From Synechococcus sp. (lineage in GTDB: Bacteria > Cyanobacteriota > Cyanobacteriia > Thermostichales > PCC-7336): a DNA stretch of 64,000 bases. The notes under the pieces are model-generated. The model did not search any database and was not told where the DNA came from. It worked only from the letters and a program-made list of their open reading frames with translations. The stretch is from NCBI GenBank assembly GCA_051439605.1, contig JBFRWN010000017.1, positions 128,001 through 192,000 on the forward strand, written 5' to 3'. Every line of letters starts with the position of its first letter. The stretch's first letter is position 1. Below, piece by piece: positions 32,361 to 42,415 of this stretch. The position numbers were made by a program, and so were the translations under genes.

Positions 32361-32564
32361 GGGAAACTCTCCGCAATGGTTTTGGCAGATGACCCGTTCT
32401 AGGGCTATTGCTGCAATTGTTTAGATCTATGTCGGAGTACTTCTACGTATCAAACAGAGAAGATTTACGTACAGCAATGTCTAATGTGCTAGGAATACTG
32501 AGTTCGCTGAGGGTGAAGACGGGTAACTTCTTTGACATCGATGTCGCTTTCTTTAACCACCACT

Positions 32565-33167
32565 ATGAAGACGGTTTTGGTAATTGATGATGACCGGGCG
32601 ATTGTAACCCTGATCGTTAAGTCACTGGAGCGAAAAAACTATCAAGCCATCGGATGTCTGAATGCCTCTGAGGGCATTGAGCAGGCAATTGCACTGAAAC
32701 CAGATCTCATTCTGTGCGATGTGGTGATGCCTGACATATCTGGATACGAGGTGCTCACAATTCTGCGTAGCAACCCTGTGACGCAGTCGATTCCGTTGAT
32801 GTTTTTAACCAATAAGACCCACAAACGAGATGTGATGGAGGGCATCTCTTTAGGGGCCGATAACTATCTCAGCAAGCCCATCGATGCAGAATTATTACTG
32901 GCCACGGTTGCGGCTCGATTTGCCGATCTCGATGAATCCTCGGTTGTGGAAGGTATGCTGGGCAGACCTGGCATCCATCCTGACCTAATTGAACAGTACC
33001 AAGGTTGGTGGGCAGCTGTAGAGCCCACAACAAACCGCTGTTTTCTGGGCAAGACCCGCGAGATGGCATACAAGTCCGCTTTACGGGCGAATCCCACCGG
33101 AGTTTTTCTGTACCAACAATTGGGCAACAGTACAAACGCTCATACCAATCAAACAGTGTACGCATAG
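32565..33167 (+). CDS. Response regulator: receiver + DUF5678-like C-terminal domain
   Basis: IDDD, LCDVVMP, FLT, SKP; tail YQGWWAAVEPTTNRCFLGKTREMAYKSALRANP; start set at 32565 by identity with the paralogue N-terminus MKTVLVIDDD. Confidence 0.85.
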   Translation: MKTVLVIDDDRAIVTLIVKSLERKNYQAIGCLNASEGIEQAIALKPDLILCDVVMPDISGYEVLTILRSNPVTQSIPLMFLTNKTHKRDVMEGISLGADNYLSKPIDAELLLATVAARFADLDESSVVEGMLGRPGIHPDLIEQYQGWWAAVEPTTNRCFLGKTREMAYKSALRANPTGVFLYQQLGNSTNAHTNQTVYA

Positions 33168-33257
33168 CTAGGGTAATTGCGCTATGACTACTGAGAGCGT
33201 TGAGCATGGAAATGGGGAACGTTCTTGAGATAGATTTCGTTTTCTCTCACCTCCCTT

Positions 33258-34445
33258 ATGAAGACGGTTTTGGTAATTGATGATGACCGGGCGATCGTGA
33301 CACTGATCGTGAAGTCGCTAGAGAGGAAAGGCTATCAAGCTATAGGGTGCTGTGGTGCCAGGAAGGGCATCACTCGGGCAATGGTGCTTAAACCAGACCT
33401 CATCCTGTGCGATGTGGTAATGCCTGATATATCGGGTTACGAGGTGCTCACAATTCTGCGCAGCAACCCTGGGACGCAGTCAATTCCGTTGATGTTTTTA
33501 ACTAGCAAGAGTAACCAACGAGATGTGATGGAGGGCCTTGCTTTAGGGGCGGACAACTATCTCAGTAAGCCCATCGATACAGAATTGCTGCTGGCCACGG
33601 TTGCGGCTCGATTTGCCGATCTCGATGAATCCCCTGCCAAGGTAAACAGTTGGAGCAAGCCTGGCATACATCCCGATCTACTTAAGGAATACCAAGGCTG
33701 GTGGGCGGCTTTAGAACCTGAAACGAATCGTTGTTTTCTGGGCAAGACCCGCGAGATGGCATACAAGTCCGCTCTACGGGCAAGTCCCACCGGGCTTTTT
33801 CTGTACCAACAATTGGGCAACGGTCCTCAGAGTAATCCAAAGAAAACAATTTTGGTCATTGATGATGACCAGGCGATCGTGACATTGATCGTGAAATCGC
33901 TAGAGAGACAAGGACATCACGTTATAGGGTGTTGTAGTCCTAAGAAGGGAATCACTTGGGCAATGGTGCTTAAGCCAGACTTGATCCTGTGCGATGTGGT
34001 AATGCCTGAAATCTCGGGTTACGAGGTACTCACAACTCTACGCAGAAACTCTGTAACACGGTCGATTCCATTGATGTTTCTAACCTGCAAGAGTAGCCAG
34101 CGAGATGTGATGGAAGGCCTCGCATTGGGAGCCGACAACTATCTCAGCAAGCCCATCGATACAGAATTGCTGTTGGCCACAGTTGAGGCTCGATTTGCCG
34201 ATCTCGATGATTCCCCTTCTAAGGTAAACAGGGGGAGCAAAGCTGATATCAATCCCGATCTGGTTAAGAAATACCGAGGTTGGTGGGCAGCCGTAGAACC
34301 TGCAACGAATCGCTGTTTTCTTGGGAAGACGCGCGAGATGGCATACAAGTCTGCACTGCGAGCAAATCCCACAGGTGTTTTTCTATACCAAAAATTAGAC
34401 AAAAGTCTTGAGAGTCATCCAAAGAAATCTTTATTCGTAAGGTAG
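33258..34445 (+). CDS. Response regulator with two tandem receiver + DUF5678-like modules
   Basis: Two further closely similar copies of the preceding protein fused in frame. Confidence 0.85.
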   Translation: MKTVLVIDDDRAIVTLIVKSLERKGYQAIGCCGARKGITRAMVLKPDLILCDVVMPDISGYEVLTILRSNPGTQSIPLMFLTSKSNQRDVMEGLALGADNYLSKPIDTELLLATVAARFADLDESPAKVNSWSKPGIHPDLLKEYQGWWAALEPETNRCFLGKTREMAYKSALRASPTGLFLYQQLGNGPQSNPKKTILVIDDDQAIVTLIVKSLERQGHHVIGCCSPKKGITWAMVLKPDLILCDVVMPEISGYEVLTTLRRNSVTRSIPLMFLTCKSSQRDVMEGLALGADNYLSKPIDTELLLATVEARFADLDDSPSKVNRGSKADINPDLVKKYRGWWAAVEPATNRCFLGKTREMAYKSALRANPTGVFLYQKLDKSLESHPKKSLFVR

Positions 34446-36230: not shown

Positions 36231-37205
36231 CTAATCGGCGGATCTGGCGATCGCAATTGCCCTGACAGGTGCCGGATATCCTTCAATAGTTTTGCCCGCA
36301 TCGTTGGGATCGAGAAAATCCTTTAGGGAGTGAAAGGTCATCCAGTCTGTCGATCTTTGCTCCGCCATAGTTGTGGGTGTGATATCGGCAATCTTCACTT
36401 TTTGGAAGCCCGCTTTCTGCAGCCACGACCGCAGTCTTTGAGAGGAAGGAATTGTCCAAATATTGCGCATTTGGGCGTAGCGTTTTGCGGGGATAAGCTC
36501 GCGATCTTCTTCTGTATCGAGCACCAGAGTTTCTAAAACCAGCTGGCCCCCTGGAATCAATGCATCCCTAAGCGTGGCGAGATGTTCGAGGGGATCGCGG
36601 CGATGGTAGAGTACCCCCATTGAGAAAACCGTCTCGAAGACCAAGAGCTTTGCAGGGAGTTGTTCTATACCTAATGGCAAGACATAGGCGTTAGGCCCGG
36701 ATAGATACCGGCGCATGGCCGCAAACTGCATAACAGATACCAGTGTTGGGTCCAAACCCACCACCATCTTTGCCCCCGCCCCCAACATTCGCAGAGCGTA
36801 GTAACCGTTGCCGCAGCCCACGTCTAGCACTCTGCGACCTGTTAGAGGCTGTAGGTGGGGCTGAACCCGCTCCCATTTCCAATCCGATCGCCATTCAGTG
36901 TCGATATGAATGCCAAATAGATGGAAGGGTCCTTTACGCCAGGGGTGCAGAGTCTTGAGCTGCTGTGTCAGCAGGTTGCGAGTGCCATCGTCGATATCTT
37001 CCGGGCTACCAATTCTGACAGCTGTTTGCAACTCAATCTGGCTGGGAGACAAATCGGGCAAGCGAGCCACGGTGGACTGCCACTGTTCTAGATTGTGGTT
37101 GCGGGCAGGAGAGAGGGCAGCAGCAATGTCATCGGGTAGGGTTTGTAGCCACGATCGGGCGGGGGAGCTGGTCAACTGGTCGTAAAGCTGAGAATAGCCG
37201 AACAT
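36231..37205 (-). CDS. cmoB: tRNA U34 carboxymethyltransferase
   Basis: PWRKGPF, IDTEWRSDWKW, LDVGCGNGY, MGVLYHRR, RYAQMRN, TIEGYPAP.RA. Confidence 0.95.
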   Translation of the reverse strand: MFGYSQLYDQLTSSPARSWLQTLPDDIAAALSPARNHNLEQWQSTVARLPDLSPSQIELQTAVRIGSPEDIDDGTRNLLTQQLKTLHPWRKGPFHLFGIHIDTEWRSDWKWERVQPHLQPLTGRRVLDVGCGNGYYALRMLGAGAKMVVGLDPTLVSVMQFAAMRRYLSGPNAYVLPLGIEQLPAKLLVFETVFSMGVLYHRRDPLEHLATLRDALIPGGQLVLETLVLDTEEDRELIPAKRYAQMRNIWTIPSSQRLRSWLQKAGFQKVKIADITPTTMAEQRSTDWMTFHSLKDFLDPNDAGKTIEGYPAPVRAIAIARSAD

Positions 37206-37269
37206 GATGGAACGGTAGAGGGGTGGTTTTGAGTGTAAGACTTAGGGCGATCGCCAAGGAGTCGCAGGG

Positions 37270-38097
37270 GTGGGGCACCATACAGGACCTGAACAGGATA
37301 AGAGCCAAGAACCTCATAGCAGACAAGAACGAGATACCAGATTGCCGCTTCAAGCAAACTCCGCAGCAGGTGCAAGGATATCTAATCTCGAACGAGTGGG
37401 GGATTCGATTGCCTCTACCAATGCGGGCTGGTCGTTTGGGGGCAAAACCAGCGTGAATTTTGAGCAGCATGTACGCCGGTCTGTGCCTCTATACGAAGTT
37501 GGGCACCAACTGATTTTGCAGATCTCTGACTTTTTTCTGGCGGATGGCTCGGTGTGTTACGACCTCGGGTGCGGGACAGGGGAACTGGCAGAACTGCTAG
37601 CCCAGCGGCATGACCAGAAGCAGGTGCAACTGATTGGACTTGATGCTGAGGCAGACATGACACGGCGGGCACATTCACGCTGTCAACCTTACGAAACTAT
37701 CGAGATTCGCTGCGAAGACGCTCTCGACTGCGACTTTTTGGCTTGCGATCTGGTGATTGCCTATTACACGATGCAATTTGTCCGCCCCCAAAACCGACAG
37801 ATGCTATTCAACCGCATCTACAAAGCGCTAAATTGGGGCGGCGGCCTACTGCTATTTGAAAAGGTACGTAGCCCAGATGCCCGCTTTCAGGACATGATGA
37901 CAGCCCTTTACACAGATTTCAAACTGTCCCAAGGGTTTTCTGGGGACGAGATTGTCGCCAAAAGTCGCAGCCTCAAGGGGGTACTGGAACCCTTCTCCAC
38001 CGAGGGTAACTTGGGGTTGCTGAAACGGGCGGGGTTTGAGGATATCACCACTGTTCTGAAATATGTTTGCTTCGAAGGGTTCCTCGCCATCAAGTGA
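37270..38097 (+). CDS. cmoA: CmoA-like SAM-dependent enzyme (carboxy-SAM synthase family, divergent)
   Basis: WSF..F..HVRRSVPLY, YDLGCGTG, TMQFV, GGLLLFEK, DFK..QGFS..EI..K; start uncertain (GTG 37270 or 37396). Confidence 0.75.
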   Translation: MGHHTGPEQDKSQEPHSRQERDTRLPLQANSAAGARISNLERVGDSIASTNAGWSFGGKTSVNFEQHVRRSVPLYEVGHQLILQISDFFLADGSVCYDLGCGTGELAELLAQRHDQKQVQLIGLDAEADMTRRAHSRCQPYETIEIRCEDALDCDFLACDLVIAYYTMQFVRPQNRQMLFNRIYKALNWGGGLLLFEKVRSPDARFQDMMTALYTDFKLSQGFSGDEIVAKSRSLKGVLEPFSTEGNLGLLKRAGFEDITTVLKYVCFEGFLAIK

Positions 38098-38213
38098 TGG
38101 GTTTCTAGATTGCTTCCAGCAACCGATTGCTTTCCTAAGATTGCTGACTTGACTCTCACTCTCCCAAATGTTCCTCGGCTTGTTAATTCGCGTCTATCCG
38201 CAGCTGATTCACC

Positions 38214-39227
38214 ATGTCTGTTTCTCAGTCCACTCGCACCAGTCCCACCGCTTTCGGCAATCAAGAGACTAACTGTGCGAGTTCTCAAACCTCTGTCACG
38301 ATCGCCACATTCTACAAATTTGCACCACTTGCAGAGCTAGAGGAATTGCGCGATCGCCTACAGCAGTTTTGCAATCGAGAAGCAATTATCGGAACCATAT
38401 TGCTGGCTGACGAGGGCATTAATGGCACGGTAGCGGGGTCGCAACAGGCGATCGATACCTTGCTGAGCCATCTAACTCAGCAGGAAGGGCTGGCGGGACT
38501 CAAGGCAAAGCAATCGGTGGCGGAAGACGTCCCATTTCATCGTCTCAAGGTGAAAGTGAAATCGGAAATTGTCACGATGGGCATTGAAGGTATCGACCCC
38601 GGACAGCGCACAGGCATGCATGTGGATGCCCAGCGATGGAACGAACTGCTGCAGGATCCAGAAGTGCTGACCATCGATACGCGAAACGACTACGAACACC
38701 ACATTGGTACGTTTCAGTCAGCCATTTCCCCCAACACCAAAAATTTTCGCGAATTTCCCCAGTTTGTCGATTGCCATCTCGATCCCCAGCAGCATCGCAA
38801 AATCGCTATGTTCTGCACTGGAGGCATTCGTTGCGAGAAAGCCAGCGCTTACCTTCTAGCGCAGGGTTTTGAGGAGGTGTACCAGCTAGAGGGTGGCATT
38901 CTCAACTATCTAGAGCAGCAGCCAGAGGAATCTCTGTGGCAGGGGGAGTGTTTTGTGTTTGATAGCCGCGTGGCTGTCAATAGCGAGTTGGAGCCAGGCA
39001 GTCACATCATGTGCTTCGGCTGTCGCCGTCCCATCTCCCCAAAAGATTGCCAATCTGAGAAATACGAAGCAGGCGTGTCCTGCCCCCATTGCTACGACAG
39101 CCTTTCTGACAGCCAGCGAGCCAGCTTTAGAGAAAGGTGGCGACAGGAGACGATCGCCCGCGATCGCCAGCAAAAGCACGTGGGAGGAGTGATGCCACGA
39201 ACGCAATCGCGCAGCGACTCGTTGTAA
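38214..39227 (+). CDS. trhO: Oxygen-dependent tRNA uridine(34) hydroxylase (rhodanese-domain)
   Basis: FYKF, GTILLA.EGINGT, IDTRNDYE, MFCTGGIRCEKAS, LEGGILNY, WQGECFVFD, C-terminal Cys cluster. Confidence 0.92.
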   Translation: MSVSQSTRTSPTAFGNQETNCASSQTSVTIATFYKFAPLAELEELRDRLQQFCNREAIIGTILLADEGINGTVAGSQQAIDTLLSHLTQQEGLAGLKAKQSVAEDVPFHRLKVKVKSEIVTMGIEGIDPGQRTGMHVDAQRWNELLQDPEVLTIDTRNDYEHHIGTFQSAISPNTKNFREFPQFVDCHLDPQQHRKIAMFCTGGIRCEKASAYLLAQGFEEVYQLEGGILNYLEQQPEESLWQGECFVFDSRVAVNSELEPGSHIMCFGCRRPISPKDCQSEKYEAGVSCPHCYDSLSDSQRASFRERWRQETIARDRQQKHVGGVMPRTQSRSDSL

Positions 39228-41289: not shown

Positions 41290-42415
41290 ATGGAAACAGC
41301 CGAACTAAGCCGCTCCCTCGAGGCATTAGACTCTCGCCTGGGTAAAGCCCAGGACTATCTTTGATGTCCCTGCCCTCGAACAACAAATAGCCGTCATGGA
41401 GCAGGAAGTCTCTCAGCCCGAGTTTTGGGGTGATGCCGAGGCTGCCCGCAAGTCCATGCAAAAGCTGAATTCCCTCAAGCAGCCGCTCGAACAATTGAAA
41501 GATTGGCGATCGCGTCTTGAGGATGCGCAAGCCATCCTGGAGCTGCTGGAGGAGGATGACGATCCTGCTTTACGCGATGAAGCTGAGCAGGCTGCTTCCA
41601 CGTTGGTGAACGAGCTGGACGCCTGGGATTTACAACAGCTGTTGTCTGGCCCCTTCGATCGCAAGGGGGCTATGTTAACCATTACAGCTGGTGCTGGTGG
41701 TACAGACGCTCAGGATTGGGCAGAGATGCTCCTGCGCATGTACGTCCGCTGGTGCGAAAACCAGGGATACACGGTCAGCACGCTAGAACTGTCGCAGGGG
41801 AACGAAGCAGGGATTAAGTCCGCCACCATTTCGGTGGATGGGGACTATGCCTATGGCTATTTGTCAGCAGAGAAAGGCAACCACCGCATGGAGCGTATCA
41901 GCCCCTTTAACGCCAACGGTAAACGCCAAACGAGTTTTGCTGGGGTCGAGGTTATGCCCATTCCCGATGAGGAAGCCGAGTTCGAGCTGAAGCCCGACGA
42001 GCTGGAGTTCGAAACTTCTCGCTCGGGGGGGGCGGGGGGCCAAAACGTCAACAAAGTTGAAACCGCCGTACGGGTGGTGCACAAACCCACCGGAATTGCG
42101 GTGCGCTGCACCCAAGAGCGATCGCAATTACAGAACAAAGAGCGGGCTCTGCAAATTCTCAAGGGCAAGTTGATGGAGCTGGAGGAGGAAAAGCGCCAGC
42201 AAGAATTGTCGGAAATTCGCGGTGAAATGGTCACCCAAGGGTTTGGGGGACGCATCCGTACCTATACTTTCGACCCCTACAAAATGATCAAAGATCACCG
42301 GACGGGGGTAGAAACTCATAACGTCGATGGCTTTATGCAGGGGGATGCTGACGAGCTGGCTGCGTTTATCCAAACCTATTTGCGTCAAGTCAATGGTGTG
42401 GGAATGGAAGAGTAA
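41290..42415 (+). CDS. prfB: Peptide chain release factor 2 with programmed +1 frameshift
   Basis: ORF0 [24 protein letters not shown] ends CTT TGA at 41359-41364; +1 frame GAT GTC CCT joins the 41396 ORF, which carries SPF and GGAGGQ. Confidence 0.96.

Follow-up and report, generated by a model that had tools for sequence, protein, structure and literature searches.

Organization of the locus

The window analysed here is a 64,000-nucleotide (nt) stretch of Synechococcus sp. DNA (GenBank assembly GCA_051439605.1, contig JBFRWN010000017.1, positions 128,001 to 192,000 of the forward strand), and the subject of this study is a cluster of three genes at its positions 36,231 to 39,227. These genes, cmoB, a cmoA-like gene and trhO, are predicted to convert the wobble uridine (U34) of tRNAs to 5-carboxymethoxyuridine (cmo5U) via 5-hydroxyuridine (ho5U), with carboxy-S-adenosylmethionine (carboxy-SAM) as donor. 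Throughout, G000 denotes the genome holding the window, other G numbers denote comparison genomes and L numbers retrieved loci.

36231..37205, minus strand: cmoB, 324 amino acids (aa); TIGR00452 460 bits; best PDB match 4qnu; residues mapped on E. coli CmoB
37206..37269, no strand: divergent intergenic gap of 64 bp, with a HIP1 site at 37247-37254 and AAGGAG at 37256-37261
37270..38097, plus strand: cmoA-like gene, labelled CmoA2, predicted carboxy-SAM synthase; 275 aa, GTG start; TIGR00740 150 bits; CmoA fold
37963..37977, plus strand: codons S232-R233-S234-L235-K236, aligned to E. coli CmoA R199-S200-M201-L202-E203
38214..39227, plus strand: trhO, predicted O2-dependent tRNA U34 hydroxylase, 337 aa; NF001133; CTGGIRC motif; placed by trees and approximately unbiased (AU) tests
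36247..36254, no strand: HIP1 site in cmoB, from sequence scan
38350..38357, no strand: HIP1 site in trhO, from sequence scan
39160..39167, no strand: HIP1 site in trhO, from sequence scan

All three genes are open, stop-free reading frames and each occurs as a single copy in G000; the cmoA-like gene and trhO share one orientation with 116 bp between them, and cmoB diverges from the cmoA-like gene across 64 bp. The first-pass annotation of the sequence, which had described three adjacent intact genes with cmoB divergent, is thus borne out by the open reading frame (ORF) coordinates and the single-copy status. The GTG start of the cmoA-like gene has AAGGAG 8 nt upstream, and a second possible start is the GTG at 37396, near which the conserved part of the protein begins. 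The 64-bp gap is not conserved within the genus and the promoter scan called no sigma-70 consensus site in it; the 5 sigma-70-like sites found by the scan, against 2.8 +/- 2.0 in shuffled sequences, are uninformative. The order cmoB/cmoA-like/trhO recurs in G001, G002 and G003, and all three genes are present in 22 of the 80 loci retrieved for the cmoA-like subfamily; the linkage is not a matter of chance. In eight of eight pairwise comparisons with relatives of the genus, the nonsynonymous rate (dN) was 0.16-0.27 with a synonymous rate (dS) above 2 or saturated, and all three genes are under purifying selection. The host is a cyanobacterium, with Synechococcus sp. PCC 7336 proteins of 65-72% identity among its best named matches. 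E. coli uses the same three enzyme families (PMC6599085, PMC4482062), but there cmoA and cmoB are co-oriented and trhO lies ~835 kb away, just as the first-pass annotation had stated, whereas in the window all three are clustered. The two-gene co-oriented cmoAB operon of gammaproteobacteria is therefore not what is found in the window, where the pair is divergent across 64 bp.

The outer genes cmoB and trhO

Judged by score and residues, the two outer genes are ordinary members of their families. CmoB exceeds the cut-offs of both TIGR00452 (460 bits against 275) and NF011650 (444 against 209), has E. coli CmoB as its best PDB match (4qnu, E 3e-111) and is ~52% identical to enterobacterial CmoB. 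It retains K91, K110, G130, D152, E182, M196, G197, Y200 and R315 when mapped on the E. coli protein, in which K91, Y200 and R315 bind the carboxymethyl group and K91 selects carboxy-SAM over S-adenosylmethionine (SAM) (Kim 2015, PMC4482062). Of the 29 CmoBs linked to this type of module, all retain K91 and R315, and 28 retain Y200. The CmoB of the window is of the gammaproteobacterial type and is predicted to transfer the carboxymethyl group to ho5U34. TrhO scores 320.6 bits on NF001133 (cut-off 170), comprises the UPF0176 N-terminal and rhodanese domains (PF17773, PF00581) and retains K112 and C200-T201-G202-G203-R205-C206 (the CTGGIRC motif; E. coli numbering), of which C200, T201, G203, R205 and K112 are essential in E. 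coli TrhO (PMC6599085). The catalytic residues of both enzymes being kept, the idea that the whole route from ho5U to cmo5U lies in these three genes has gained ground.

The middle gene encodes a non-canonical CmoA-family protein

The model of the cmoA-like protein (predicted local distance difference test score 89.5) matches E. coli CmoA best (4gek; Z 30.4, root-mean-square deviation 2.0, 224 residues, 27% identity), and the top three fold matches are all CmoA structures (Z 29.7-30.4), with other methyltransferases at 26.9 or below. The protein retains Y39, G64, D89, D117 and K198, SAM-site residues of CmoA, and S66 is changed to G. The best 120 matches of the subfamily come from several phyla at 59-85% identity, and canonical-type cyanobacterial CmoA is only ~33% identical to the cmoA-like protein. 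By these comparisons the protein belongs to a distinct, non-canonical CmoA subfamily without R199 and N132; this more novel point had not been raised in the first-pass annotation.

One peculiarity of the subfamily concerns the carboxylate ligand. In E. coli CmoA, R199 is the only residue contacting the carboxylate (PMC4482062), and R occupies that position in only 2 of the 72 subfamily members, with K at position 203 in 70 and R at position 200 in 65 (E. coli numbering; E. coli has R199 and E203). The basic ligand may thus have moved by one helix turn to K236, perhaps with R233. The CmoA of Synechococcus phage S-B43, a demonstrated carboxy-SAM synthase (kcat 2.33/s) which, together with CmoX/CmoY, serves DNA cytosine carboxymethylation (PMC12783734), likewise has neither R199 nor N132 and carries a basic residue at 203. 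It differs from the protein of the window, to which it is 27-28% identical, in having E199/R203 instead of K203 with a small residue at 199, and it scores just 115.6 bits on TIGR00740. Among viral CmoA homologs, E or Q at 199 combined with R at 203 was found in 64 of 64 distinct sequences, 53 of which adjoin a CmoX-like gene. These homologs (viral contigs L236-L315, and L047) display a charge swap relative to E. coli R199/E203, and position 203 is their putative carboxylate-binding site.

We also searched for other sources of carboxy-SAM. In 32 genomes chosen for carrying the cmoA-like subfamily, most of them beside cmoB or trhO, the cmoA-like protein was the sole TIGR00740 match at E<=1e-20 in every case and a canonical CmoA over the cut-off in none (0/32); in G000 it is the only CmoA-family match. 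Carboxy-SAM synthesis is favoured by the CmoA fold, by this sole presence, by the K91 kept in CmoB and by the active phage CmoA with R203, and we regard it as the likely activity of the cmoA-like protein. Several findings pull in the opposite direction. The protein reaches 150.1 bits on TIGR00740 and 97 bits on NF011995, below the respective cut-offs of 193.3 and 285, and the R199 column holds S232. The column of N132, which we take to be a ligand-site residue of E. coli CmoA, holds Y165. The proposed stand-in of K236 for R199 draws on alignment and helix spacing, many of the 32 genomes are metagenome-assembled genomes of unstated completeness, and in TrhO the column of R114, a residue of the tRNA-binding sheet needed in E. 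coli, holds a conservative K116.

The failed cut-offs and the loss of N132 and R199 are what one would expect if the cmoA-like protein were an ordinary methyltransferase or an inactive relative, with CmoB using SAM to give 5-methoxyuridine (mo5U) or the route stopping at ho5U; E. coli cmoA mutants do make ho5U and mo5U (PMC4482062), and most subfamily members lie in polysaccharide loci, where a cmoB match was found in only 10 of the 50 genomes with a cmoA-like homolog unlinked to cmoB (search covering 55 of the 57 loci). We consider this explanation improbable, given that the SAM-disfavouring K91 is kept in all 29 module CmoBs, that a CmoA-family gene accompanies cmoB in 20 of the 20 cmoB genomes found among 401 cyanobacterial genomes (one sample of the class), that the phage CmoA is active without R199 and N132 and at a lower TIGR00740 score, and that the cmoA-like gene is under purifying selection.

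The wider neighbourhood of the subfamily was inspected in the best 80 of its 526 loci in the species-genome collection, which are those closest to the query and not an estimate for the whole subfamily. Neither cmoB nor trhO was present in 54 of these 80 (L048-L127; e.g. L059, L071, L073, L095, L099, L119, L122), and the neighbours there, in a scan of 49 of 98 selected ORFs, were FkbM-type and other methyltransferase-fold genes, sulfotransferases, glycosyltransferases and flippases. Surface-glycan carboxymethylation is a candidate function for the relatives in polysaccharide loci. A PEMT-family membrane methyltransferase comes after the subfamily gene in L079 (6735-7487) and L121 (6779-7534). 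That the relatives stand mostly beside other transferases would also fit a different acceptor for the product: carboxy-SAM might be used on a non-tRNA substrate, as by TglE/TglF on a peptide, with trhO a mere neighbour, and TglF does retain K91 while acting on a peptide (PMC10491745). We give this very little credence, since the CmoB of the window scores 460 bits on a tRNA-specific equivalog, trhO stands beside the cmoA-like gene in 25 of the best 80 loci and even where cmoB lies elsewhere (G248, G353), and the scanned flanking ORFs include no second methyltransferase adjoining the module.

Predicted pathway and its role in decoding

Carboxy-SAM synthesis by the cmoA-like protein thus being preferred, the three genes very probably encode a complete oxygen-dependent cmo5U34 pathway. 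TrhO would hydroxylate U34 with O2, a reaction established for the E. coli enzyme, and would be the only ho5U route in G000, because no TrhP was found there; the one U32 protein of that genome has at least 825 aa with DUF3656 and is read as RlhA type. The cmoA-like protein would make carboxy-SAM from SAM and prephenate, with K236 (E. coli position 203), perhaps together with R233, binding the carboxylate instead of R199; a chorismate mutase is present in G000. CmoB would then move the carboxymethyl group to ho5U34, which is established for E. coli and is suggested here by the retention of R315, Y200 and K91. As CmoM was not found in any of the five genomes searched, G000 among them, the pathway would end at cmo5U and not at 5-methoxycarbonylmethoxyuridine. 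Relative to E. coli, the system would therefore lack TrhP and CmoM and use a separate CmoA subfamily without N132 and R199.

The tRNA set of G000 includes G34 tRNAs for Ala, Val, Pro, Thr, Ser and Leu and C34 tRNAs for Pro, Thr, Ser and Leu; no C34 tRNA for Ala or Val was found in this genome, and therefore the reading of GCG and GTG (21% of the Ala and 39% of the Val codons, respectively) falls to U34 tRNAs. To our knowledge, most cyanobacteria likewise have no C34 tRNAs for Ala and Val. With the modification, U34 tRNAs would probably read G-ending codons better, above all GCG and GTG, and the effect is likely a more efficient reading of such codons and not a needed widening of the code. Compensation for missing tRNAs was ruled out, in view of the G34 tRNAs in all six boxes and the C34 tRNAs for Pro, Thr, Ser and Leu. 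Nor does this tRNA set support the broadened four-codon-box reading put forward in the first-pass annotation. For codons ending in G, cmo5U has been called the best base (PMC13602947). In E. coli, TrhO mostly hydroxylates the four substrate tRNAs that are neither Leu3 nor Pro3, and growth of cmoB mutants is only slightly affected (both PMC6599085). As the chemistry is known, the cmoA-trhO link has been published and the E. coli cmoB phenotype is slight, the physiological effect is expected to be modest. In the same tRNA search no convincing tRNA-Arg(UCU) was found in G000, and three ARAGORN calls are likely false: tRNA-Arg(UCG) at C44:83653, the second Ser(UGA) at C117:3061 and Val(GAC) at C17:241286.

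We further considered whether the module replaced a native TrmR/mo5U route. The methyltransferase family PF01596 is absent from G000 and from seven of the eight other module carriers and present in 33 of 54 genomes tested; the idea was not adopted, as true TrmR makes up only ~3% of PF01596 (Ryu 2018, PMC6158493) and several non-carriers also lack the family. In G053 (C1:2059263-2060742) the native trhO adjoins a PF01596 O-methyltransferase, possibly a TrhO plus TrmR-like pair.

Distribution of the module

Among the 401 genomes of the class, trhO is present in 321 and cmoB in 20, and the gene set of the window type in just 8, spread over three families; such a set is scarce in cyanobacteria. 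All three genes lie within ~5 kb in G000, G001, G002, G268 and G275, the cmoA-like gene adjoins trhO with cmoB elsewhere in G248 and G353, and the three genes are on short separate contigs in G345. cmoB occurs in all four genomes of the genus of the window and in none of three others of its family, in all four genomes of g137 and in 12 of 13 genomes of g128 (13 of 17 in that family). A CmoA-family gene without cmoB was seen in G259, G329 and G343 (L150-L152) and in G383 and G393 (L136, L138). In named Halothece and Dactylococcopsis records the cmoA-like gene adjoins trhO. Cultured carriers among the named matches include Synechococcus sp. PCC 7336, Halothece sp. PCC 7418 and Acaryochloris thomasi.

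Across phyla, the three genes occur together in 22 of the 80 best loci (out of 526), and 20 share the layout of the window. The latter comprise 5 cyanobacterial loci, L050 and 14 others, titled Gammaproteobacteria (9), Proteobacteria or Pseudomonadota (4) and unnamed bacterium (1). In 13 proteobacterial-type module loci a common pgi gene stands in conserved synteny; these loci have 0-1 HIP1 sites and a module GC content of 41-72%, and pgi synteny across such a range suggests long residence of the module in a proteobacterial-type lineage. The module is split by insertions of 1.1-2.1 kb in the cyanobacterial carriers L036 (8611-10287), L035 (3712-5815) and L052 (4865-6001). L070, titled Klebsiella pneumoniae, groups with loci of uncultured Proteobacteria, so that its label is doubtful.

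Probable horizontal transfer of the block

Phylogenies were built for TrhO (27 of 80 rows dropped in one tree, with 7 outgroup, long or redundant rows, and 43 of 80 in another tree and in the test of family monophyly), CmoB (60 and 33 rows) and the cmoA-like protein (79 rows, chosen to avoid duplicates). Branch support was measured by the Shimodaira-Hasegawa-like approximate likelihood ratio test (SH-aLRT). The module-linked TrhOs of cyanobacteria and Proteobacteria fall on one side of a branch with SH-aLRT 97, 96 and 98 in three trees, the 96 and 98 trees being those with 27 and 43 rows dropped. The cyanobacterial module TrhOs, drawn from three families, cluster with a support of 95-98 and stand separate from those of G005 and G006, which are genomes of the window's own family. 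TrhO of sister genera in that family is 47-50% identical to the window's TrhO, and TrhO monophyly of the family was rejected (AU test, p-AU 0.006). The module CmoBs form a clade at SH-aLRT 95 in the 60-row tree, a single origin of all cyanobacterial CmoB was rejected (p-AU 0.0002), and in the 33-row tree the window-type CmoB sits among gammaproteobacterial-type CmoBs, with E. coli. In the cmoA-like tree, whose root is long and unsure, 26 of 28 module rows group inside the polysaccharide-linked diversity.

From these trees and tests we think it likely that the three genes were acquired as one block by horizontal transfer and that native trhO was replaced; the block would be common to uncultured Proteobacteria and would now be inherited vertically within three cyanobacterial genera. 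For the combination of both parts, cmo5U34 pathway function and transfer as a unit, we estimate a probability of about 0.68. The evidence is not uniform. Every tree comes from a quick search without bootstrap values. The module clade of CmoB was missed in the search with 33 rows, although constraining the tree to contain it raised the log-likelihood by 19 units. In the cmoA-like tree, the module clade has an SH-aLRT of just 88 and omits 2 of the 28 rows. A native TrhO, that of G050, grouped with the module proteins in the SH-aLRT 96 tree, and the AU test did not reject a single TrhO clade for cyanobacteria as a whole (p-AU 0.056).

The last result would also be compatible with the same function but a vertical history, in which an ancient cyanobacterial module was kept in three genera or the block was exported to Proteobacteria from a trhO nucleus. 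Both HIP1 and the codon use of the genes fully match the host, and the cmoB and cmoA-like genes of L050, titled Alcaligenaceae, nest among cyanobacterial rows, which means some outward transfer or mis-binning. A vertical or outward history nonetheless appears unlikely when set against a module present in just 8 of 401 genomes, a different TrhO in sister genera with family monophyly rejected, a CmoB placed with that of E. coli among gammaproteobacterial types, and 13 proteobacterial-type loci with conserved pgi synteny at 41-72% GC. Horizontal acquisition, as the first-pass annotation had proposed, is hence the most probable course and probably concerned the block as a unit.

The gene set is old. 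HIP1 (GCGATCGC) occurs four times in the block (starts 36247, 37247, 38350 and 39160; none inside the cmoA-like gene), where a dinucleotide Markov model predicts 0.11 sites; the genome averages 2.6 per 3 kb. The codon use of cmoB, the cmoA-like gene and trhO lies at percentiles 31, 71 and 57 of 2157 long ORFs in G000. HIP1 sites, host-like (ameliorated) codon use and dN/dS mark the genes as old residents under purifying selection, in agreement with the early proposal of a long-past acquisition based on HIP1. No sign of a currently mobile cassette was found in plasmid, phage, composition or flank checks. The plasmid collection held no module-type match (18 matches, all Enterobacterales or Aeromonas records, <60% identity), neither cmoB nor trhO stood beside viral CmoA in any of 80 loci, and none of six flanking ORFs scanned belonged to a mobility family. 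A mobile context was rejected, with a best GenBank phage match of 37% and a best viral-contig match of 34%. The module can thus be called portable, as it had been at first, on an evolutionary timescale only.

A second cmo5U module in cyanobacteria

The other 12 of the 20 cmoB genomes carry a different CmoB clade and a canonical-type cmoA, which in most of the 12 lies directly upstream of cmoB and co-oriented with it. Eleven of them have no trhO and do have a TrhP-sized U32 gene, within a few kb in seven. Such a module was seen in L037 (3159-7384), where the order on one strand is U32, U32, cmoA, cmoB, and also in G073, G218, G253, G267, G280 and G309. The first U32 protein of L037 scores 260 bits, below the TrhP cut-off of 534, and is labelled TrhP1-like on account of its size, pairing and context. 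No TrhP-sized U32 gene was found in the 8 other cyanobacterial and 8 proteobacterial-type carriers of the window module tested. The same gene set is listed for Trichodesmium erythraeum in Supplementary Data 2 of Sakai 2019 (PMC6599085), and TrhP1/TrhP2 with CmoA and CmoB would likewise be a cyanobacterial route to cmo5U. It differs from the window in its CmoB clade (~40% identity to the window's), its canonical-type CmoA, its O2-independent pair of U32 hydroxylases and its co-oriented operon without trhO. Judged from the gene content and the CmoB phylogeny, the trhP1-trhP2-cmoA-cmoB module is independent of the module of the window.

Relation to known systems and significance

Cyanobacterial cmo5U genes had in part been noticed before. 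CmoAB has been treated as mainly proteobacterial (PMC6063277); CmoB orthologs were reported in some Cyanobacteria (Kim 2015, PMC4482062), and Sakai 2019 (PMC6599085, section 8) regarded yceA/trhO as a strong candidate since it lies close to cmoA in cyanobacteria; Dactylococcopsis salina was noted there to have cmoAB and no trhP. The cyanobacterial cmoA-yceA linkage is very likely the same module as the one in the window. It takes up one clause in the accessible text of Sakai 2019, where the three-gene layout, the CmoA subfamily, the sharing with Proteobacteria and the replacement of trhO are not described. These reports lower the surprise, and the novelty first attached to cmo5U genes in a cyanobacterium was overstated. 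Our literature searches, with thin coverage of subscription journals, found no description of the three-gene layout or of the cmoA-like subfamily. The pathway is known, its arrangement here is new and its CmoA is non-canonical; the system is a variant and not a new pathway.

More speculatively, and with slightly less than an even chance of being right, the findings can be joined into one scenario: a distinct carboxy-SAM synthase lineage, with its basic carboxylate ligand shifted by one helix turn and otherwise at work in surface-polysaccharide loci, would have been recruited between a gammaproteobacterial cmoB and trhO, the resulting oxygen-only cassette of three genes would have travelled in one piece between uncultured Proteobacteria and three cyanobacterial genera distant from each other, displacing native trhO, and other cyanobacteria would independently have gained the oxygen-independent trhP1-trhP2-cmoA-cmoB operon without trhO. 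If so, cyanobacteria came by cmo5U on two occasions, both times through a module for the entire pathway, and the type of hydroxylase would suit the oxygen regime.

Outside this scenario, the likely block transfer indicates that a tRNA decoding pathway can cross phyla in one piece, and cyanobacteria have two separate versions of it, of which only one depends on oxygen. The notion of a CmoA is widened as well: a large subfamily whose members are annotated just as "methyltransferase domain protein" seems to be the only supplier of carboxy-SAM to a genuine CmoB.

Other features of the window

Three near-repeats of a receiver domain with a short C-terminal domain lie at 32532-34445, as one 211-aa gene and one 395-aa gene with two copies; they are a recent tandem duplication, given that G001 and G003 have a single copy. 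Furthermore, the prfB ORF at 41396-42415 scores 432 bits starting at model position 28, and its missing start would presumably fit the usual programmed frameshift.

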